A stretch of DNA of 25,234 nt from contig JAHQWW010000051.1 in assembly GCA_029856365.1 (NCBI GenBank), forward strand, positions 1 to 25,234, in the 5' to 3' direction. Shown piece by piece: positions 5,853 through 17,247 of this stretch. The notes beneath the pieces are model-generated. The model was not told where the DNA came from. It ran no database searches and saw only the letters and a list, made by a program, of their open reading frames with translations. Every line of letters starts with the position of its first letter. The first letter of the stretch is position 1. The translations under genes and the position numbers were made by a program. Origin of the DNA: Candidatus Hodarchaeota archaeon. Lineage in GTDB: Archaea > Asgardarchaeota > Heimdallarchaeia > Hodarchaeales > Hodarchaeaceae.

Positions 5853-8849
5853 TTAATAATATTGTCCTCTCAATCTATTAATCCATTTTGTTGTTTCAAG
5901 TATAAAAAGTGGAATGAGTGCAGCAATGATACATAAGATCCAATCTCCAAAATCAAGACCAATAATATCCACATAAATTCCAAATCTAGCAACTAACTCC
6001 TGAATTTCTTTGATGTACATTAAGATTAGATGTAAAGGTAAGATTGAGAACGCAAGTACATAAGTATACCAATAAGAATCTTCTCTGATAGCCATTATTA
6101 ATGATTTATCTATCCGTCTAATAGACAGAATAATCAGGGGGATTGCAATATACAAGATAGTATGCATATAAGTCCGTGCTTTGGCATGATTCCAACTTTG
6201 GGGTTTTAGATTGGGAGATTTAGCTTCATTCTGAAAAATTGGTATATAGAATTGTTGATTAAAGTCGTTTATAGGAACAAATCCAAAATATGTTGCAAAA
6301 TAAATAATATAAATAATAGTAGCCAGACTGATCGAAGTTAGTAACAATGTTAGAGCTAATCTCTTGTTGAATATTCCAGCAGTATCTATTGGTTTTCTAT
6401 CCATGATATCCTTGGGAATACCATCAATGATCAGTGCCAGAGGAGGAAAAGAGTGTGCAATACCAAAAATATAGGCTCGTTGGAGATGATCCATTAATTC
6501 AAAACCTGGGATAAATCCTGAAATGAAGGAGGAACCAATATAACAACCAGCTTCAGCCAGATTAGCACATATATAGAAAAAGATGACAACACGAATCCTT
6601 TGAAAAAGTGCACGTCCCTCTCTAATTCCTGTTACAATGGAATTAAACGAATCATCGGCAATGACAAGATCTGCAGCTTGTTTACTTACTTCTGTACCAG
6701 CAATTCCCATAGCTATCCCCGCATCTGCCATACTAAGAGCGAGTGCATCGTTGACTCCATCACCTGTCATAGCGACAACTCGCTGTTGCTGTTGATACCG
6801 TGCAACAATGATCTGTTTGTCTTGAGGTGCCACCCGTGCAAAAACCCGAGTGTTTGTGAAATCTCTATCCGCTAATTGTGATGCCATTTTCCCCTCATGT
6901 GTTTGGTGTTCTTCCAAGTATACCATTCCAATATTATTAGCAATGGAGGAGGCAGTTAGAGGTGAATCGCCTGTGATCATAATTGGAATGATTCCTGCTT
7001 GCAAAGTTTCATTTACTGATTCATCAACACGATCACGAGGAGGATCTAGTACTGTAACAAAACCGAGGTAAGATAGATCGACTTCTACTTCATCTCGCTC
7101 CTCATCTCCTTTCGTTGGAAGTTTATCTATGTTTCTATATGCAAAAGATAATATTCTATAACCTTGGCCGGCAAATTTTTCCATATAATCCATTATTATA
7201 TTCTTATGATCTTTTGTCAATTTTTCTCTATTCTTTCCAAATCCAATGTAAGTACATTTCGGTAAAAGAACCTCAGTAGCTCCCTTACAGAACACAAAGA
7301 TCTCGTTCTTGGTATTGAAGACTTTACTCATCCGTTTTAAGGAGGAGTCAAAAGGATATTCTCTTAAAAGCTCAAATTCTTCTTTAATCTTACTTTTTTC
7401 CATCCTTGTTTTATTGAATAACGCTAAAAGGGCCGACTCGGTTGGACTTCCAGTCCCATTATATACATATTGACCTGTTGCTTCAACAAATTCCTCAAGA
7501 ATTTCAGAGTCATTATTTAACATGCCAGATGTTATCAACATACCTAAAGATGAGTTTAATTCAACAGTTTGCTCGGAATAAGTTTTAGCATCCTTTTCAA
7601 TTATCTTATCATCATCTTCTTTTAATTCAACTATCTTACCCTCTGGAGAATACCCTAAACCAGTAACAAAGTAATGCTTACCTGTTGATGCATCCCAAAT
7701 CCTTTTCACTGTCATCTGACCAGCAGTGATAGTTCCTGTCTTATCAGAACAGAGTACACTGATTCTTCCCAAACTTTCTATAGAGGCCAGATTTCGAATG
7801 ATTACCCGATGCTTAGCCATAGCTAAAACACCAGTAATCAAAATAATTGTAGTTAATAGAGGGATATTGATGGGGACAACGCTCATGGCTTTGATGATAA
7901 TATTGCTGAGGGAGAAAATAATCTCCCCAATTAATATAATTGGTTCGGCAAAGCTGAGTTCTCCTTCTTCCAATCGGTCAAGAATCACAGCTCCTTGATA
8001 GATAATCAGCATACTAAAAACAATCAACATACCAAATGCCAAATAATTTCCAATGACATTCACTTTCTGACGGATTGGAATGTCTCCTGTGTTTAATTGC
8101 TCCAATTCAAGACTTATTTTTCCAAATTCTGTATTTCCTCCAGTATTAACAACTAATGCTAAGCCTGAACCCATTGTCGCAAAAGTTCCATTAAATAACA
8201 TATTTTTTCGATCACCAATAGGTGTATCTTCAGGATAAGCTGTTTCACCAGTTTCTACTTTAGTAGTAGGAACACTTTCACCTGTTAATGATGATTCATT
8301 TACACGTAAAGAACTAGATTTAATAACACGAGAATCAGCAGGAATCTTATCCCCCTGAGCGATTTTTATTAGATCTCCAGGAACCACTTGTTCAGTAGGA
8401 ATTTCAGACTCCGTTCCCCCCCTAATTACCCTGGCTTCTGGGGCAGCCATTTTGTGGAGAGCTTCAATCTTTTTCTGAGCTCTTGCTTGTTGAATAATAG
8501 CAATTAAGAAATTCACACCAACAATCAATATCCATTGAGCTGCTGTGATCCAGATAGAAGTATCTTTAGGATTGATTAACAGATATATTAACGCTAGAAA
8601 AAGAATAAAAGCCGTCATAATCAAATAAATAACAATTAAAGTGTTCAATAACGGAGCTAAATATACTTGCCAGAAGCTCTGTTTTGGTTTGGGGATTATA
8701 TTGAGCCCAAAGTTCTCAAGCCTCTTCTCAGCTTCCTCTTGAGATAATCCTTTTTCAAGATTAGTATCCAAATTGATGACTAGCTCCTCTAACTCGATTG
8801 AATGACCACTAATAGCGGCGGGTTTCATTTCTATGTCATTAGTTGGCAT
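5853..8849 (-). CDS. P-type ATPase, P2A-like scaffold with non-canonical transport site (substrate unknown, probably not Ca2+)
   Basis: Motifs LTGES, CSDKTGT (D369), KGATE, DPPR, MITGD, GDGVNDA and about 10 TM segments. M4 reads VVPINIP instead of IPEGLP; M6 reads QRAYIFGIAHSFP instead of QILWINLVTDGLP. Confidence 0.93.
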   Translation of the reverse strand: MPTNDIEMKPAAISGHSIELEELVINLDTNLEKGLSQEEAEKRLENFGLNIIPKPKQSFWQVYLAPLLNTLIVIYLIMTAFILFLALIYLLINPKDTSIWITAAQWILIVGVNFLIAIIQQARAQKKIEALHKMAAPEARVIRGGTESEIPTEQVVPGDLIKIAQGDKIPADSRVIKSSSLRVNESSLTGESVPTTKVETGETAYPEDTPIGDRKNMLFNGTFATMGSGLALVVNTGGNTEFGKISLELEQLNTGDIPIRQKVNVIGNYLAFGMLIVFSMLIIYQGAVILDRLEEGELSFAEPIILIGEIIFSLSNIIIKAMSVVPINIPLLTTIILITGVLAMAKHRVIIRNLASIESLGRISVLCSDKTGTITAGQMTVKRIWDASTGKHYFVTGLGYSPEGKIVELKEDDDKIIEKDAKTYSEQTVELNSSLGMLITSGMLNNDSEILEEFVEATGQYVYNGTGSPTESALLALFNKTRMEKSKIKEEFELLREYPFDSSLKRMSKVFNTKNEIFVFCKGATEVLLPKCTYIGFGKNREKLTKDHKNIIMDYMEKFAGQGYRILSFAYRNIDKLPTKGDEERDEVEVDLSYLGFVTVLDPPRDRVDESVNETLQAGIIPIMITGDSPLTASSIANNIGMVYLEEHQTHEGKMASQLADRDFTNTRVFARVAPQDKQIIVARYQQQQRVVAMTGDGVNDALALSMADAGIAMGIAGTEVSKQAADLVIADDSFNSIVTGIREGRALFQRIRVVIFFYICANLAEAGCYIGSSFISGFIPGFELMDHLQRAYIFGIAHSFPPLALIIDGIPKDIMDRKPIDTAGIFNKRLALTLLLTSISLATIIYIIYFATYFGFVPINDFNQQFYIPIFQNEAKSPNLKPQSWNHAKARTYMHTILYIAIPLIILSIRRIDKSLIMAIREDSYWYTYVLAFSILPLHLILMYIKEIQELVARFGIYVDIIGLDFGDWILCIIAALIPLFILETTKWINRLRGQYY

Positions 8850-9114
8850 ATATATCCTTCCAACAAGGAAAAAATCTTTAACGATGTTAATATTTCATGC
8901 TTGTTTAAATAATGTTTTGTACTTCAAAAAATCAATAAATTAATAAAAATTTTTACACAACAGACAAGAAAATCCAACCTCTTGATTTAATACGAAGAAT
9001 TTTCAAGAAAAATTTATTATAAATACTTTGACCACCACTACTAGCTCTTGAGGTGTTTTTATAGAGAATGAAAACAAAGGTCGCATTATTTTAGAAAATA
9101 ACATAAGGTTAGGT

Positions 9115-9134
9115 ATAAGTTCAATGGAACTTAT
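9115..9134. promoter_or_regulatory. Perfect 8-bp inverted repeat, candidate operator
   Basis: ATAAGTTC-AATG-GAACTTAT in the divergent intergenic region, ending 42 bp before the ATG at 9177. Confidence 0.35.
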
Positions 9135-9176
9135 CGATGAGTTTAAACGTAATCATTATTTTTAGAGGGGTTACAA

Positions 9177-10343
9177 ATGAAGAATGACTATGATGTAATT
9201 ATAATTGGTGCTGGACCTGCTGGTTTGGCAACAGCATTAGGAGCTAAACGAAGTGGTGTAGAAAAAGTATTAGTTATAGAACAACAGTCAACAATCGGTC
9301 AACAATTAAAAGGCCAATCCATTCACTATCGTCCTAAATTATTAACGAAGATTTTCCCTAAAAAGCTCCCTACTATGGCATTTGTTAGTGAAATTAAGTC
9401 ATTTGGTAGAAATTATTACTCTCCTTCAGGAAAAAAAACCTTCCGCTTAGAAGATAAGATTAACAGAGTATGGATTGATTTCCGTCTTTTTCTAACTGAA
9501 CTTGCTAAACAAACAGTAACGGAAAACGTGTGTCTTCGAGTAAACACCAAAGCAACCAACCTTGTCACATTAGCTAATGGACGACTACAAGTAGTTATAG
9601 AAGATGTGTTAAAAAATACATCAGAAATTCTAACCTCACGAGTAGTGGTTGGAGCAGAAGGGGCGAATAGTTTAACAGCAGAACTTCAGCATTTACCTCA
9701 ACCAGGTCCTCTTTGTCCGATTATTAGAGGGCATTTTTTTGGTGAATATAATGAGAATGATATGGAATTTCTCTTTTTCTCCGATACAAATTTAAATGTA
9801 GGAGGTACAAGTTTTATTTTTCCTCACGAACACCAAAATGCTGAATTTGGATTTATTATTTTTCCAGAAGTCTCTAGTGACCCACTACCAAATTATTGGG
9901 AAATTTGGGAAGAGGTATTACAGAGTCCTATAATTAAAGAAAAAATCCAAACATCGAGATTCTATGAAACAATCCAATCAACAATACCCATGGGTGGACC
10001 AGTTTCTAAGATCTATGCAAACAACTGTTTTATTATCGGTGAAGCCGCAGGACATGTCACCCCTTCTGGAGGTTCTGGGATTCTAACGGGATTAGAACTA
10101 GGTCTATTTTTAGGTGAGCAATTTGGAAAATATTATCCAAATTGGGAGAAAGAATCGCTTAAGAATATTGAAAGGGAGATCTTAAAGCATCCTACTCACG
10201 AAAAGCTTTCATTAATGACTCAAATGATCATTCCTTTTCGTAGACGGTTATTCCAAGAACTCCGAACCTGGGAAAAAATTGATGAAGAATGGGAAAGCAT
10301 TACTGAAATTCTTACACTTGCTTTTGCACCAAAAGATGAATAG
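9177..10343 (+). CDS. Geranylgeranyl-reductase-family FAD-dependent oxidoreductase (divergent)
   Basis: YDVIIIGAGPAG dinucleotide-binding motif, VVGAEGANS, GGTSFIFP, IPMGGP, IGEAAGHVTPSGGSGI; RBS GAGGGG. Confidence 0.85.
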   Translation: MKNDYDVIIIGAGPAGLATALGAKRSGVEKVLVIEQQSTIGQQLKGQSIHYRPKLLTKIFPKKLPTMAFVSEIKSFGRNYYSPSGKKTFRLEDKINRVWIDFRLFLTELAKQTVTENVCLRVNTKATNLVTLANGRLQVVIEDVLKNTSEILTSRVVVGAEGANSLTAELQHLPQPGPLCPIIRGHFFGEYNENDMEFLFFSDTNLNVGGTSFIFPHEHQNAEFGFIIFPEVSSDPLPNYWEIWEEVLQSPIIKEKIQTSRFYETIQSTIPMGGPVSKIYANNCFIIGEAAGHVTPSGGSGILTGLELGLFLGEQFGKYYPNWEKESLKNIEREILKHPTHEKLSLMTQMIIPFRRRLFQELRTWEKIDEEWESITEILTLAFAPKDE

Positions 10344-10442: not shown

Positions 10443-11066
10443 ATGATTACCTGTATTGTGCTAGCTGCTGGTGAGTCCAAACGATTCGATGGAAATAAAT
10501 TACTGTTTGAGATCAAGCCAAACGTCACAGTTATAGAATTTCTTTTGAAGTCTATAATAGCCTCGAAAGTTGATCGTACAATAGTAGTATTAGGTCATGA
10601 AGCAGATTTAGTAAGTAAAATGGTTTTAAGGTTAAACGATGCATCTCTACAAACAGTTGTTAATCCAGATTACAGAATAGGTGGTATGTCATCCTCTGTC
10701 CGTCAGGGAGTGGAAGAGGTTTTAGACAGTCATGCAATCATAATAACTCCAGCTGATATTCCTTTCATACCTTCCAAAGTCTTTAACCAACTTATCGCCT
10801 ATTATTATAACCATAACCCTCGTTTAATCATCCCTATCTATCAGAATCAGAAGGGTCACCCCATTCTAATTAGTTCAGAGCTTTTTAGCCATGTTAGGAA
10901 GATTTCAGAAGAAAAACGGGGGATGAAAGAAATCATTACTCGTTTTTCAGAAGATATTGTTTTTGTCCCTACTGAATCACCAGAGATTCTTCAAGACGTG
11001 GATAAATATGAAGATTTAATTAAACTAAAATCTATTTTAAAGACAAAAGAAAAGAATTTAATATAA
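10443..11066 (+). CDS. mocA: Molybdenum cofactor cytidylyltransferase (MocA-type NTP transferase)
   Basis: IVLAAGESKRF.GNKLL, NPDY..GMSSS, ADIPFI, KGHPILI, DVD..ED; adjacent to xanthine-oxidase-family genes, which use MCD. Confidence 0.85.
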   Translation: MITCIVLAAGESKRFDGNKLLFEIKPNVTVIEFLLKSIIASKVDRTIVVLGHEADLVSKMVLRLNDASLQTVVNPDYRIGGMSSSVRQGVEEVLDSHAIIITPADIPFIPSKVFNQLIAYYYNHNPRLIIPIYQNQKGHPILISSELFSHVRKISEEKRGMKEIITRFSEDIVFVPTESPEILQDVDKYEDLIKLKSILKTKEKNLI

Positions 11067-11137
11067 CTAAAGACATTAATCATAATTCTTTTTAATAACG
11101 TGACTTTCTCCCTAAAATACCCTTCGGAAAGATAGAT

Positions 11138-11389
11138 ATGATCTCAGTAACCATAGAATTGATGGCTGCTGTTCGGAATCCTTTTCCAAATAAAAAAAGA
11201 AAGAATAAGCTTGCTGAGCTCACACAAGACTTAACCCTTAAAGAACTCCTTTTACAGGTAGGCTTCTTGAAAAAGGAATTAGAGCATTTAATCCCAATCG
11301 TTAATGGTTCAAGAGTTCCAACGGATTATCAGCTTAAAGATGGAGATTACATATGGATAACCTTCCCCTTAGGTGGAGGTCTGCAATGA
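11138..11389 (+). CDS. MoaD/ThiS/SAMP-like ubiquitin-fold sulfur-carrier protein with a 2-residue C-terminal extension
   Basis: 83 aa; TLKELL, IVNG, LKDGD.I..FPLGGG followed by LQ-stop. Confidence 0.85.
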   Translation: MISVTIELMAAVRNPFPNKKRKNKLAELTQDLTLKELLLQVGFLKKELEHLIPIVNGSRVPTDYQLKDGDYIWITFPLGGGLQ

Positions 11390-11390
11390 T

Positions 11391-12221
11391 ATGAAGCAAT
11401 TACAAGAATTTATTTATCCTAATAGTATCGAGGAGGCACTCTCTTTTCTCGATGAATCTACTGAAATAATAGCGGGGGGAACTCACATAACAGTATCGAA
11501 AAATCAGTCCTTCAAAAGATTAGTTGACATAACTCGAATAGGACTGAATTATATTAAAAAGGAGGATCATCAGGTACGGATAGGGAGTACAACCACGGTT
11601 ACTGAGATGATTGAATCGTCTATTGTGAGAAAAATTGGTAATGGAATATTGACTAAAGCCTGTCAATTGATTGCTGATACTCCCCTTCGGAATATCATAA
11701 CCCTTGGAGGAAATATCGCGAGATATTATCCTTGGGCAGGATTACCCGTTGTATTACTTGTAATAGATGCAGAAATTATTATAGTAGATAAAGAGGGACT
11801 AGAACAAACAATATCGGCTACAAAGTATTTTAAGAACGCTAAGGTAAAAACAGGTGAGATCATCAAAGAAGTTGTTTTTCCTGTGCAAAGCGATTGGTTC
11901 TACCGATATGAGAAGTTTGCTTTAACAACAGTGGATTATTCATGGTTAACAATGGCTTTTGGGGCCAAGAATGAGGGAGGATCCATTGTTGATCCCCATA
12001 TTGCAGTATCCCGAATAACCAAGGTAACACGAGTGAGTGAAGTTGAAAAATTACTTGAAGGGAAAGAGCTTTCCAAATTAAACATAAATGAAGTCATTCA
12101 AACACTACGAACATCAGTGAATGTTGTTTCTGATTATAGATCCTCAAAAGAATACCGAGAACATCTATTAGGGATTCTTTTCAAACGGATGCTAAATGAA
12201 ATGAAAGAGGAGGGAAAATAA
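11391..12221 (+). CDS. Molybdenum hydroxylase FAD-binding (medium) subunit, cluster 1 (YgfM/CoxM-like)
   Basis: PNSIEEAL, IAGGTH, IGSTTT, LRNIITLGGNI, SDYRSSKEYR. ATG 11391 with GGAGGT RBS preferred to the track GTG 11373. Confidence 0.9.
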   Translation: MKQLQEFIYPNSIEEALSFLDESTEIIAGGTHITVSKNQSFKRLVDITRIGLNYIKKEDHQVRIGSTTTVTEMIESSIVRKIGNGILTKACQLIADTPLRNIITLGGNIARYYPWAGLPVVLLVIDAEIIIVDKEGLEQTISATKYFKNAKVKTGEIIKEVVFPVQSDWFYRYEKFALTTVDYSWLTMAFGAKNEGGSIVDPHIAVSRITKVTRVSEVEKLLEGKELSKLNINEVIQTLRTSVNVVSDYRSSKEYREHLLGILFKRMLNEMKEEGK

Positions 12222-12694
12222 TGGCACTAGAGATTGAAGTAATAATTAATGGTCAGCAAAAAGTTCTGACGATTGAGCCTTATGATCTTTTAATTGATGT
12301 TCTCCGAAGGGAGGGATATAAGAGTGTGAAGCGTGGATGCTCTGAAGGTACCTGTGGCACTTGTACAATCATTCTGAATGGAAGAGCAGTGAAGTCCTGT
12401 ATTCTCTTAGCGGCGCAAGCTCACAAAGGTTCTATCGTCACAGTCGAAGGCATTGGAACTCGTGATCAACCACACCCACTTCAACAAGCATTTGTAGAGG
12501 AAGGAGCTATTCAATGTGGCTTTTGCATTCCTGGTATAATCCTGTCAGCAAAAGCGTTACTAGATAACAATCAATCACCTACAAAAGAGGAAGTTAAACA
12601 AGCAATGGATGGTAATCTGTGCAGATGTACGGGTTACTCTGGACAAATCAAAGCTATACTTTCTGCAGCAGCAATGATGAGAGGTGAAAAATAA
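12221..12694 (+). CDS. Molybdenum hydroxylase 2x[2Fe-2S] (small) subunit, cluster 1
   Basis: GCSEGTCGTCT...SC, QCGFC, NLCRCTGY; TAATG stop/start overlaps on both sides. Confidence 0.95.
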   Translation: MALEIEVIINGQQKVLTIEPYDLLIDVLRREGYKSVKRGCSEGTCGTCTIILNGRAVKSCILLAAQAHKGSIVTVEGIGTRDQPHPLQQAFVEEGAIQCGFCIPGIILSAKALLDNNQSPTKEEVKQAMDGNLCRCTGYSGQIKAILSAAAMMRGEK

Positions 12695-15039
12695 TGACCC
12701 AAAAAGTGTTTGAAGGAAAAGTTGTTGGTAAGAGTGTTGCTAAAATAGACTCATTAAGCTTAGCATTAGGGAAACCTCTTTTTACTGATGATAAATCCTT
12801 TAAAGATATGGTTTACGTTAAGATGTTGTTTAGCCCCCATGCCCATGCTGAGATCATCACCATAGATACAACTGAAGCAGAAAAAGTCCCAGGTGTATTA
12901 GGAGTTCTCACCTATAAAAATGCGTCGCAAGTCCTTCATACAACCGCTGGCCAGGGGTACCCTGAACCATCTGTGTATGATACACGAATGTTCAACAAAA
13001 AAGTAAAATTTGTTGGAGATAGTGTCGCTGCGGTGGCTGCAGAATCCATTCAAATCGCTGAGAAAGCTATACAGCTAATTAAGGTAGAATATAAAGTTCT
13101 AGAACCAATTTTTAACTGGGACGAGGCCCTTGGCAATCCAATCATCATTCATGATGAAGAAGAAGCAGGATATCTCATTCCAGTGTTTTATGATAGTAAA
13201 AATAACCATGTAGCTCATATTGACGCGTTAGTAGGAGACATCGATCAGGGTTTCAAAGATGCTGATATTCTTGTTGAAAAGATCGTACGTAACCACTATG
13301 CGCAGCACTGCCCATTAGAACCTCATGTTTCCATTGCTTATTTTGACGAAAATGACAGATTAGTTGTCCGATCTGCTACCCAAGTTCCTTACCATGCTAG
13401 AAGAATTATTGCTCAGGTTTTAGATCTTCCAATTGCAAAAGTTCGGGTTATTAAACCCCGTATTGGTGGAGGTTTCGGCTCAAAACAGGAAATAGTTACA
13501 GATTTAATTGCTGCCTCCTTTACGCTCCAATTAAAGAGACCAGTTAAGTTGGAATATTCACGAAGAGAGGAATTCATTTCAGCACGGACACGCCATCCAA
13601 TGACCACGAGATTAAAAGCTGGTGTCAAGAAAGATGGTTCAATCACTGCTATGGATATGAGAGTAACTAGCAATACTGGAGCCTATGGAACTCATGGATT
13701 AACAGTTTTAAGTAATACTGGCAGTAAAACCTTACCATTGTACCATTGTGACAATATCCGATTTATTGGCGATACTGTTTACACAAACCTCCCCATAGCT
13801 GGAGCATATCGAGGATATGGCGGTACTCAAGCTGCTTTGGCAATGGAAATTGTGATGGACGAATTAGCAATCCAAATTGGGATGGATCCAGCAGAATTTA
13901 GGTTAAAAAATCACATTAAACCTGGTGAGACTTCTCCTATTTTCAAGGTTCTTGGAGAAGGTACAGAAGGAGTAGAACAGACAATAGATTCGTGTGGGCT
14001 CTCAGATTGCATTAAACAGGGTGCAAATGCTATAGGGTGGTGGTCTCGTGAAGATCATAAGGAAAAATTTAACACTGAAACCAAAAAGAGAGGATTTGGA
14101 CTCGCTTGCATCATGCAGGGTTCATCAATTCCGCATATAGACATGGCAGCTGCCTATGCCAAAATGAATGATGACGGATCATTTAATCTCCTAGTTGGTG
14201 CAACTGATATAGGAACTGGGAGTGATACAGTTTTGGCTCAGATCTTTGCTGAAGTGTTAAACCTCGACATTGAGTCCGACATTGTTGTACTATCTTCAGA
14301 TACAGACATTACTCCTTTTGATAAAGGAGCTTATGCTTCATCTACAACCTATCTCTCTGGAATGGCGGTGAAAAACTTAGCTGAAAAGATAAAGAAACAG
14401 CTTCTCGATTATGCAGCGGAACAAATGGATCTTCCAGTTAACGAACTTGAACTAGTTGGTAAAACTGTATTCCATCTAAAAACCAAAAAATCAATGAGTT
14501 TTGCTGAAATAGGTACTAAGGCTCTATATACAGAAAATCAGCAGCAAATTGGTGCTGTTGCATCAGAATTATCTAAAAAATCACCTCCCCCATTTTGTGC
14601 CCATTTCGCCGAAATTGAGGTTGACATCGAGACTGGAAAAGTTAGAGTTTTGAAATATGTTGCAGCAGTGGACTGTGGAACCCCAATTAATCCTAAATTA
14701 GTTATTGGCCAAACAGAGGGAGCATTAGTAAACGGATTAGGATATGCATTAAGCGAACATTATTATTTTAATGCCCAAGGAAGAATGCTGAATCCTTCAT
14801 TTGGGAATTATAAAATAATGACAACTACTGACCTACCAGAAATAGAAACAATTATTGTAAAAACTTATGAGCCGACAGGGCCATTTGGCGCAAAATCAAT
14901 TGGAGAACCAAATATCAGTGGTCCTATGCCCTGTCTTTCGAATGCAATTTATGATGCTATTGGTATTCGTATTACTGAACCTCCCTATACTCCAGATAGA
15001 ATTTTGAAAGCAATTAAAGACCACCAACAAGTTATGTAG
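12694..15039 (+). CDS. xdhD: Molybdenum hydroxylase Mo-binding (large) subunit, XdhD/YgfN-like
   Basis: SPHAHA, TTAGQGYPEPS, IGGGFGSKQE, GAYRGYG, MQGSSIPHID, FDKGAYASS, GAKSIGEP. GQxxPEPS and FDKGAYASS recall E. coli XdhD/YgfN (from memory, symbol tentative). RBS GAGGTGA. Confidence 0.85.
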   Translation: MTQKVFEGKVVGKSVAKIDSLSLALGKPLFTDDKSFKDMVYVKMLFSPHAHAEIITIDTTEAEKVPGVLGVLTYKNASQVLHTTAGQGYPEPSVYDTRMFNKKVKFVGDSVAAVAAESIQIAEKAIQLIKVEYKVLEPIFNWDEALGNPIIIHDEEEAGYLIPVFYDSKNNHVAHIDALVGDIDQGFKDADILVEKIVRNHYAQHCPLEPHVSIAYFDENDRLVVRSATQVPYHARRIIAQVLDLPIAKVRVIKPRIGGGFGSKQEIVTDLIAASFTLQLKRPVKLEYSRREEFISARTRHPMTTRLKAGVKKDGSITAMDMRVTSNTGAYGTHGLTVLSNTGSKTLPLYHCDNIRFIGDTVYTNLPIAGAYRGYGGTQAALAMEIVMDELAIQIGMDPAEFRLKNHIKPGETSPIFKVLGEGTEGVEQTIDSCGLSDCIKQGANAIGWWSREDHKEKFNTETKKRGFGLACIMQGSSIPHIDMAAAYAKMNDDGSFNLLVGATDIGTGSDTVLAQIFAEVLNLDIESDIVVLSSDTDITPFDKGAYASSTTYLSGMAVKNLAEKIKKQLLDYAAEQMDLPVNELELVGKTVFHLKTKKSMSFAEIGTKALYTENQQQIGAVASELSKKSPPPFCAHFAEIEVDIETGKVRVLKYVAAVDCGTPINPKLVIGQTEGALVNGLGYALSEHYYFNAQGRMLNPSFGNYKIMTTTDLPEIETIIVKTYEPTGPFGAKSIGEPNISGPMPCLSNAIYDAIGIRITEPPYTPDRILKAIKDHQQVM

Positions 15040-15435: not shown

Positions 15436-17247
15436 ATGACCTATGAGTTTACAACATTTGCGGTCATAATGGGTGCGCTAACTGTCCTCGCGTTCTTTAT
15501 GTTCCTTTATCCGCTTATTTTCCGTCCAAAATCACGACTAGTACTTCATTTCATGGCACTAATTGGGAGTATTGTGATCTGGTCTCTGGGTTATACATTG
15601 GATATACTCGCAGTCGATAAAGCCACAAAATTATTCTGGATCAGAATTGAATATCTTGGAATAGCTACAATTTGTCCCCTCTTTCTTCTTTTCATTTTGG
15701 TCTTTACAAATCGAGCTGAGACTGCTTCTAAACCGATAATGGGATTGTTATTCTTTCCACCTGTCATTCATTGGTTATTACTAGTAACAAACGAATATCA
15801 CGGACAATTTTATGAATCCGTTACCCTAAATACAGAAACTCCATTTAATACGCTGGATCTGGTTTATGGACCAATTTTTTATAGTCATACCATCTATTCA
15901 TATCTCTTATTGGCTATTGGATTCTTTTTACTTATACAGACATATTTTGAGGTTAGTGGGAGTAATCTTTATCAGAAGCAAATTTTAATCGTAATAATTG
16001 GCTCGACCTTTCCCATTTTAGGAAATATTATACGGATCTTCAAAATTCCTCCTCTTACCTTTATTGACCTAACACCAGTGGCATTCGTCATTTGTTATAT
16101 TTTGTTCTTCTATGCATTGTTTGAGGTCGAATTTCTTGATATAGTACCTTTTGCTTATCAATTCATAATCAAAAATCTCGCAGATATTGGTATAATAGCG
16201 ACTACTAAAGATAATTTAATCGTTGATATTAATCAATCAGCCTGTGAGTACATATTCGAAGAAGAATGTCCAGATATTATCGGACGTAATCTTTTCGTCA
16301 TCCTTAGTGAACAGGAAAGACTAAAGCCTTATCACGAAAGAATAAGCCAAATAGAGAACTCGTTACTAGAAATACGTGATGACACCTTGGACTTTGAGAT
16401 GGAACTTCTATATCCCCTACAACCCCAAGGTCAATTCTATAGAATAACCATCAAAGCACTTAGAGACAAAGATAATCTTCTTGGCTTTATTTACCTCGTT
16501 CAAGATATCACATTAGAGAAAGAAATTGAGCTCTTACTCAGAAAAAGCATAGATTTCAAGAACTCATTATTAAGTGTCATCTCTCATGATTTGAAAAATC
16601 AGTTAATGGTCATTCAAGGGTTTACAGATGTATTAAGAAAGGAACTAAGTCACATTCAGAATTTTGCTGAAGTAGAAGAATCTCTGGATGGGATTAGTGC
16701 TAAAACACTCATAATGCAAGAAATAATGACTGATGTACGAAGCTACCTTAAGACAATGGGAGCTTTCGAAGAAGTAAAAGACTTAACAGTAATAGATGTA
16801 AAGGAAATAATTCAGGATGTAATAGCGAGTTTTAAATCTGCTATTAAAAACAAAAATTTGGAGCTCAATATAGATTGGCCAACAGATCCGAAGATTTTCA
16901 CATTAGCAGATCTACGTCTTCGCAGTGTTTTTAGCAATATCTTAGATAATGCTATCAAATGGAGCCCTCCAAATGATGTAATTGAGATATCAGTGAATAA
17001 AGAAAATCTATCTTGGATATTTAGTATCAGTGATCATGGCCCTGGGGTACCCAATGGTCTAAAAGACGAAATTTTCAAACCATTTGTCAGTATTGGTCCA
17101 CAAGGCAAAGTTGGCAGTGGATTGGGCCTTTCGATCAGTTTAGAGATACTCCAATCCTATAAAAGTAAGATCTGGATAGAGAATGTTAAACCCCAAGGCG
17201 CAAAGTTCGTTTTTCGATTACCAGTTGCTGAAAAAAAGGGAGAATGA
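15436..17247 (+). CDS. Sensor histidine kinase, N-terminal 7TM (HisKA_7TM-like) + PAS-like + HisKA + HATPase_c
   Basis: About 7 hydrophobic segments, IVDINQSA PAS-like start, H-box ISHDLKN, N-box NILDNAIKW, G1 DHGPG, F-box IFKPF, G2 GSGLGL; RBS AAGGAG. Confidence 0.93.
   Translation: MTYEFTTFAVIMGALTVLAFFMFLYPLIFRPKSRLVLHFMALIGSIVIWSLGYTLDILAVDKATKLFWIRIEYLGIATICPLFLLFILVFTNRAETASKPIMGLLFFPPVIHWLLLVTNEYHGQFYESVTLNTETPFNTLDLVYGPIFYSHTIYSYLLLAIGFFLLIQTYFEVSGSNLYQKQILIVIIGSTFPILGNIIRIFKIPPLTFIDLTPVAFVICYILFFYALFEVEFLDIVPFAYQFIIKNLADIGIIATTKDNLIVDINQSACEYIFEEECPDIIGRNLFVILSEQERLKPYHERISQIENSLLEIRDDTLDFEMELLYPLQPQGQFYRITIKALRDKDNLLGFIYLVQDITLEKEIELLLRKSIDFKNSLLSVISHDLKNQLMVIQGFTDVLRKELSHIQNFAEVEESLDGISAKTLIMQEIMTDVRSYLKTMGAFEEVKDLTVIDVKEIIQDVIASFKSAIKNKNLELNIDWPTDPKIFTLADLRLRSVFSNILDNAIKWSPPNDVIEISVNKENLSWIFSISDHGPGVPNGLKDEIFKPFVSIGPQGKVGSGLGLSISLEILQSYKSKIWIENVKPQGAKFVFRLPVAEKKGE

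Follow-up and report, generated by a model that had tools for sequence, protein, structure and literature searches.

An Asgard archaeal clade of P-type ATPases with a predicted ion site unlike any characterised one

On the minus strand of a 25,234-nucleotide stretch of DNA from a Candidatus Hodarchaeota archaeon (contig JAHQWW010000051.1 of assembly GCA_029856365.1; the window is this whole stretch) lies, at positions 5853..8849, a complete gene for a 998-residue P-type ATPase, P0001, of an Asgard group that we call the 'PINIP' clade. The gene was described from the open reading frame list and its translation, which runs without internal stops, from Pfam matches and from an AlphaFold2 (AF2) model; its domains, Cation_ATPase_N, E1-E2_ATPase, Cation_ATPase, Hydrolase and Cation_ATPase_C, make up the full P2-type complement. 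The A-domain reads L-T-G-E-S at residues 188-192, with the dephosphorylation motif TGES (189-192; 8274..8285, minus strand, as are all features of the pump) in its P2/P3-type form, and G190 and E191 are invariant in the homologue alignment. Equally invariant is the phosphorylation motif DKTGT (369-373; 7731..7745), which holds the phospho-Asp D369, and KGA at 522, DPPR at 602 and GDGVND at 696-701 complete a set that an earlier interpretation made from the letters alone (the sequence-only reading) had located correctly throughout. The general superfamily motifs (DKTGT, a TGES-type loop, the TGD and GDGxND hinge and the M4 proline) are all present and invariant, and the superfamily model TIGR01494 (HAD-IC) scores P0001 at 249.5 bits against a cut-off of 62.3. 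Judged by these motifs, the machinery for ATP hydrolysis and phosphoenzyme formation is predicted to be complete, and P0001 has the appearance of an intact, active pump.

The ion site is where P0001 departs from its relatives. A HMMER alignment to LMCA1 of Listeria places P-I-N-I-P of transmembrane helix M4 (P326-I327-N328-I329-P330; 7860..7874) on P-E-A-L-S, with I327 at the position of SERCA E309 and a clade-specific Asn, N328, behind it; I327 precedes D369 by 42 residues, the spacing found in P2 pumps. The same alignment sets M6, QRAYIFGIAHSFP (790-802; 6444..6482), on QLLFINLVNDSLP, which brings F795, A798 and H799 onto the N, N/T and D ligand positions (N796, T799 and D800 of SERCA) and leaves R791 as an additional charged residue. 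Helix M5 keeps N763-L-A-E766 (6552..6563), aligned with the canonical N..E of site I, its Glu invariant, while at the cytoplasmic end of M2 the acids of the canonical QExxAE are neutralised in QQARAQKK (120-127; 8469..8492). M8, ARTYMHTILYIAIP (891-904; 6138..6179), has I903 at the SERCA E908 position, where most clade members have Glu; this column was mapped through the PEGLP outgroup. Thus the sequence-only reading, which had put Ile at the E309 position, named the three M6 substitutions, noted the missing M2 acids and singled out N763 and E766 as the ligands that remain, holds up on each of these points. On these alignments, Ca2+ site II is predicted to be erased (E309 to Ile, N796 to Phe) and site I to be rebuilt around E766 of M5 and H799 of M6, together with an Asn in M4 and another in M5; the crown group would add an Arg, R791, two turns toward the outside. 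When residues 740-998 (M5-M10) were searched by themselves, no PDB sequence matched at E <= 0.001. The whole protein matches at E 1e-109, and it is the C-terminal membrane part that holds most of the divergence.

The AF2 model of P0001 (predicted local distance difference test 90.3, predicted template-modelling score 0.85) unwinds the M4 helix at 323-327 and breaks the M6 helix at 799-800, and a Foldseek search of the PDB with this model returned P2 pumps for all 50 best matches, headed by SERCA2b in the E2-BeF3 state (template-modelling score 0.77-0.78), SPCA1 and LMCA1. The fold is therefore predicted to be SERCA-like, with 10 transmembrane helices and with M4 and M6 unwound. Among the family models of NCBIfam, P0001 reaches no equivalog cut-off: its best scores are 420.7 bits on PMR1 (TIGR01522, cut-off 798.3), 412 on IID (TIGR01523, 645) and 386.6 on SERCA (TIGR01116, 703.4), the cut-offs of these three models spanning 645-798, whereas canonical neighbours reach 671-778 bits on the P2A models. 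We also considered the ratios of the IID, IIIA, IIB and V scores to the IIA score as a sign of affinity and rejected them, as all of them rise together in the clade; such a joint rise reflects lost P2A-specific signal and not affinity to one family. A look-alike search of a protein atlas with P0001 gave generic P-type clusters only.

Placed beside the P2A pumps (LMCA1, SERCA1/2, SPCA1/PMR1), P0001 shares the domain set, TGES, DKTGT, the M4-to-Asp spacing, the 10 helices and the N..E of M5; LMCA1 is its best sequence match (E 1.5e-109), and the P2A-like pumps form the sister group in our tree. It keeps the P2 architecture and fold and lacks the P2A Ca2+ ligands, the Glu of PEGLP and the N..TD of M6. 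It differs from P2A in having Ile for E309, Asn for G310, Phe for N796, Ala for T799 and His for D800, in its neutralised M1/M2 entry acids, in equivalog scores of about half the cut-offs and in its place within a separate clade with support 1.0. The P2D model for ENA-type Na+/K+ pumps aligns end to end (26-857) and its 412 bits come near the best P2A score, but they fall under the cut-off of 645, and this family was compared by model score alone. ENA pumps, too, are not known to have a Glu at the E309 position.

The altered site is not a peculiarity of one protein. In an alignment of 239 full-length sequences, over which we counted 143 clade members and 96 PEGLP pumps, P326 and E766 are present in 143/143 members, H799 in 141, N763 in 136, I327 in 133, a Phe or Tyr at 795 in 126 and N328 in 122 (Ser in 17). 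In M2, Q121 is found in 136/143 and Q125 in 121/143, where the PEGLP pumps have Glu in 93/96 and 87/96, respectively. In M4, Met is conserved at 322 and, in the majority, also at 325, and PISIP is the form seen in some Heimdall members. A word-index search gave 119 homologues at 44-82% identity, every one of which carries M-P-I-[NSTA]-I-[PT]-L-L-T-T; by source they are labelled Hodarchaeales, Heimdallarchaeota, Thor-, Odin- and Promethearchaeota and one Bathyarchaeia. An exhaustive phmmer search of 1.84 billion cluster representatives extends the signature down to about 440 bits, below which PEGLP pumps follow, with the deep M4 variants PIMIP, PINLP, PINIV, PFNFP, PVNFP, PWNFP and PWSFP; deep members bear the names Promethearchaeota, Helarchaeota and Korarchaeota. 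Overall, the clade counts at least 142 sequences at 31-82% identity, the named ones almost all Asgard, and compared with PEGLP pumps its transmembrane segments hold half the acidic residues and about twice as many His, Tyr and Trp. P0001 itself bears each of the clade's marks: P-Phi-N/S-Phi-P in M4, N..E in M5, Phi..H in M6 and a place in the monophyletic group. Because the signature is conserved across the whole clade, it is neither chance nor decay, and the lineage-specific loss of a PEGLP and N..TD site, which the sequence-only reading had offered as a way in which it could be wrong, is refuted by homologues that keep the altered site throughout.

Two features of P0001 that had been read as telling turn out to be less general. 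Of the residues whose conservation in a clade the sequence-only reading had proposed to check, PI[NS]x and the M6 His are conserved, but R791, although present in P0001, occurs in only 86/143 members. Similarly, the missing M8 Glu is real for P0001 and its 34-member subclade, which is defined by Ile at column 903 together with Val for Met325, but not for the clade, in which 105/143 members have Glu there (PEGLP pumps have Q/E). In a FastTree phylogeny (LG+G, rooted on the CPC P1B pump of the same genome) the 142 clade tips form one monophyletic group, which has support 1.0 and contains no PEGLP pump; the same holds with P3A and P3B pumps added. The clade branches beside prokaryotic P2A-like pumps, and P0001 falls in the crown subclade with the M8 Ile. 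In the larger tree the PEGL pumps and the clade stand together against P3A and P3B, with weak deep support (0.49 and 0.55); placement relative to P2B, P2C, P2D, P4 and P5 is by hidden Markov model (HMM) scores and fold matches only. The basal branches (PWNFP, PFNFP, PINLV) already have Glu in M5, His in M6 and Glu in M8 and carry a hydrophobic residue at 791, so that R791 would be a later addition. Taken at the level of sequence, the clade is a deep, well-populated and near Asgard-specific family, whose predicted site matches no characterised P-type site.

Asgard archaea have other pumps that are hydrophobic at the E309 position. Bona fide P3A-type pumps, which occur in 21 of 120 sampled Asgard genomes and have TIGR01647 scores that rise to 1077 bits (cut-off 615), read IPVALP or IPAALP in M4; a review describes prokaryotic P3A pumps as mainly known from methanogens. 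The Asgard P3A loci include L020-L027 (genomes G041, G034, G108, G061, G082, G112, G059 and G052), and some genomes have 2-4 copies. Aligned with these pumps, the E766 column of the clade is Arg in P3A and the H799 column is Asp, as it is in PEGLP pumps; AHA2 R655 corresponds to SERCA E771 and AHA2 D684 to D800 (PMC5387105). P3A pumps (AHA2, Pma1 and those of Asgard) resemble the clade in their hydrophobic E309 position, in a conserved M2 Asn (N113 in P0001), in a single acid/base pair at the SERCA E771 and D800 positions, in a positive residue toward the exit (R791 in the crown group) and in a Tyr-rich membrane core. They are unlike it in that the polarity of the pair is swapped, with Arg or His in M5 and Asp in M6 where the clade has Glu in M5 and His in M6, and P0001 lies outside the P3A clade and scores only 306 bits on TIGR01647 (cut-off 615.5).

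We consider it rather probable that P0001 is an active P-type ATPase of an uncharacterised, near Asgard-specific family beside P2A-like pumps and that it pumps a small cation other than Ca2+; the sequence-only reading had spoken of an active non-Ca2+ pump, and the intact catalytic motifs and replaced Ca2+ ligands support that much. The clade as a whole probably pumps protons or another small ion, as the residues of its site suggest. For P0001 we suggest a normal E1/E2 cycle, in which the first choice of cation would be H+ and a monovalent ion such as Na+ would be possible; assigning the substrate to H+ or a monovalent cation is a tentative step, and assigning it to a divalent or transition metal seems unlikely. 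In such a cycle E766 would act as the titratable or ligating carboxylate, and H799 and R791 would supply the built-in counter-charge by which the ion is driven out in E2P. The counter-charge would allow dephosphorylation without a counter-transported ion, by the same logic that has been described for the built-in counter-ion of P3A pumps (PMC5387105). It is conceivable, and we put it forward with reserve, that the clade deserves the rank of a P-type ATPase subfamily of its own, comparable to the recently named P6 and spread across most Asgard archaea. Such a subfamily might pump protons by a pair of swapped polarity, with Glu in M5 and His in M6, or might move a substrate that has so far been linked to no P-type family; in either case its transport chemistry would be new among P2 pumps.

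Several observations weigh against a small-cation pump of this kind. The substrate is predicted from residue identity, and for the geometry of E766, H799 and R791 we relied on the alignment to SERCA positions, not on model coordinates. Most of the 21 genomes with true P3A-type pumps also carry the clade, and in these a simple H+ pump would duplicate part of what is already there; nor is the clade phylogenetically P3A. The gene neighbourhood was rejected as a clue to the substrate, as four diverse loci gave no hint. Finally, in most members the second carboxylate, the Glu of M8, together with the His would suit a divalent or transition metal too.

This last point leads to the main rival, a pump for a metal such as Mn2+, Fe2+, Zn2+, Co2+, Ni2+ or Mg2+ bound at the rebuilt site I by Glu of M5, His of M6, Glu of M8 and Asn. 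A His with two carboxylates is a common ligand set for transition metals, and E(M5)/H(M6)/E(M8) is both the ancestral and the majority signature of the clade, accompanied by N763 and N328 and by the Met residues of M4; one relative also lies 3.5 kb from a ZnuABC-type transporter, although at that one locus only. Conversely, M4 offers no Cys ligands, none of 142 clade members has a His- or Cys-rich terminal metal-binding domain, and in the 34 members of the P0001 subclade the M8 Glu and Met325 are gone while R791 is kept, which leaves one carboxylate against Arg and His and would make a poor divalent site. A metal is thus an unlikely substrate overall: it is the chief alternative for the Glu-His-Glu majority form and is less attractive for P0001, because P0001 retains a single carboxylate. 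A pump for Ca2+ itself, or for Ca2+/H+, with a modified site I would draw on N763, E766 and, in most members, the M8 Glu as site-I ligands, on the Ca2+ pumps that are nearest in sequence and fold, and on public annotation, which names these proteins Ca2+-transporting ATPases. We regard it as improbable all the same, given that Asp800, a ligand common to both Ca2+ sites, is His in nearly all members, that the E309 and N796 positions are hydrophobic and that the equivalog scores are so low; the known single-site Ca2+ pumps (PMCA, SPCA and LMCA1), moreover, keep site II and not site I. In the genome of P0001, which is 83.6% complete, there are in addition three P2 pumps of PEGL type, a P3B pump resembling MgtA and a CPC P1B pump. 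This makes P0001 a specialised paralogue rather than the Ca2+ pump of the cell; that it is a canonical Ca2+-ATPase is very unlikely. The proposal that P0001 has lost its substrate site and serves as a non-transporting sensor, scaffold or regulator could appeal to the disappearance of most classical ligands and to the M5-M10 half that finds no PDB sequence, but it is hardly credible in view of the strong purifying selection on E766, H799 and P-Phi-N down to 31% identity and of the unwound M4 and M6, which are predicted with high confidence.

The sequence-only reading had raised yet another substrate, proposing a candidate prokaryotic lipid flippase, which would be an intermediate of P2 and P4 or a product of convergence. 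Taken more widely, P0001 would be a translocase of some other large amphipathic substrate, with I327 as a P4-like hydrophobic gate in either case. P4 pumps (Drs2, ATP8A1/2, Neo1) do share with P0001 an Ile after the M4 proline followed by a small polar residue (PISL against PINIP or PISIP), the acidic entry funnel of M1/M2 is neutralised, the host is an Asgard archaeon, the case that the sequence-only reading had called notable, and in the window the pump gene stands head-to-head with a gene of the geranylgeranyl reductase (GGR) family. To our knowledge, P4 pumps are known only from eukaryotes. Their defining features are DGET, whose Asp is unique to P4, and PISL with a P4-specific insert in the linker from M4 to the P-domain (PMC11460456); TM1 carries GA/QQ in addition, and a Cdc50 subunit usually accompanies the pump (PMC11460456, PMC10654040), this beta subunit being found with P4A and P4C but not P4B (PMC10654040). 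P0001 has none of DGET, the linker insert or GA/QQ, and its TGES and P2-like spacing uphold the caveat on DGET and spacing with which the idea had been qualified. On the P4 model TIGR01652, P0001 scores 108 bits against a family cut-off of 431, near the 91-95 bits of PEGLP Ca2+ pumps; of six other clade members, five lie at 89-147 bits and P0137 below the listing threshold, and scores of the clade and of Ca2+ pumps on the P5 model behave in the same way. The fold search with the AF2 model gave P2 pumps alone among its top 50, phylogenetically the clade groups with P2A-like pumps, and Ile at the E309 position loses its force as a P4 hallmark, as the Asgard P3A pumps are hydrophobic there too. 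The invariant buried Glu-His pair fits an ion or proton site rather than a lipid groove, and because the adjacency to the GGR gene is lost beyond an 82%-identical relative, that gene is not evidence of lipid handling. CDC50 (PF03381) had no match in the genome, which says little, as the control genomes gave no match either and the assembly is 83.6% complete. A lipid flippase is thus far-fetched: the 'P4-style' label and the intermediate position find no support in TGES, spacing, HMM score, folds and tree, no test that we ran links the clade to eukaryotic lipid flippases, and the finding supplies no prokaryotic ancestor for them.

The substrate bound at the canonical M4/M5/M6 site is what defines a P-type ATPase subfamily, and the clade, with a predicted site unlike any characterised one, occurs in roughly 70-80% of the Asgard genomes sampled. 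We found no published description of it, including in the full-text literature on Asgard flippases or P4 pumps and on new P-type subfamilies. A 2023 review of P-type ATPases counts one family added since the original five, expects more from prokaryotes and does not mention Asgard pumps (PMC10654040). The sequence-only reading had expected automated annotation as a Ca2+-ATPase, and public records do name these proteins Ca2+ or cation ATPases; a survey of Asgard transporters lists pumps of this type as putative Ca2+-ATPases and builds on that label a case for Ca2+ signalling in these archaea (PMC7997004). That argument should not rest on the PINIP clade.

Across the phylum, a match at the level of the clade (E <= 1e-130) is found in 142 of 200 sampled genomes, and in 69 of the 85 of high quality; it is absent from several families with small genomes. 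Tandem pairs of clade members are frequent among the surveyed genomes. Two tandem members with about 40-45% identity to the query occur in many genomes of a large Asgard family (f13) and in some others, for example at G128:C86:1976-7773, G025:C86:1223-7492, G180:C13:22237-28297 and on G040:C32. Such pairs point to an old duplication, possibly with different specificities.

In the window, the neighbours of the pump gene are two peptidases, the GGR-family flavoprotein, MobA, a molybdoenzyme of xanthine-dehydrogenase type and a histidine kinase with a seven-transmembrane (7TM) sensor. The neighbourhoods of four diverse clade members (82%, 48%, 45% and 38% identity) have no neighbours in common apart from synteny with the 82% relative, which alone shares the GGR-like/MobA/M20 block and in which an ABC transporter separates the pump and GGR genes. 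The GGR-family gene (9177-10343, plus strand) scores 97.5 bits on TIGR02032, under the cut-off of 158.8, and is divergent from the pump gene across a 327-bp AT-rich spacer (8850-9176), in which we found a single weak AT-rich inverted repeat and nothing more. Beyond it, also on the plus strand, 10443-15039 encodes an NTP transferase resembling MobA and, after it, the three subunits of a molybdoenzyme of xanthine-dehydrogenase/CO-dehydrogenase type (FAD_binding_5, 2Fe-2S and MoCoBD subunits), and 15436-17247 the histidine kinase, with an N-terminal 7TM sensor (HisKA_7TM), PAS, HisKA and HATPase_c. Elsewhere in the same genome, the MgtA-like P3B Mg2+-ATPase (G000:C122, L016:1360-3939, minus strand) scores 774 bits on TIGR01524 against a cut-off of 611 and has MgtA as its best PDB match (E 1e-177). 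Its M4 reads TPQLLP, unlike the PEMLP of MgtA.

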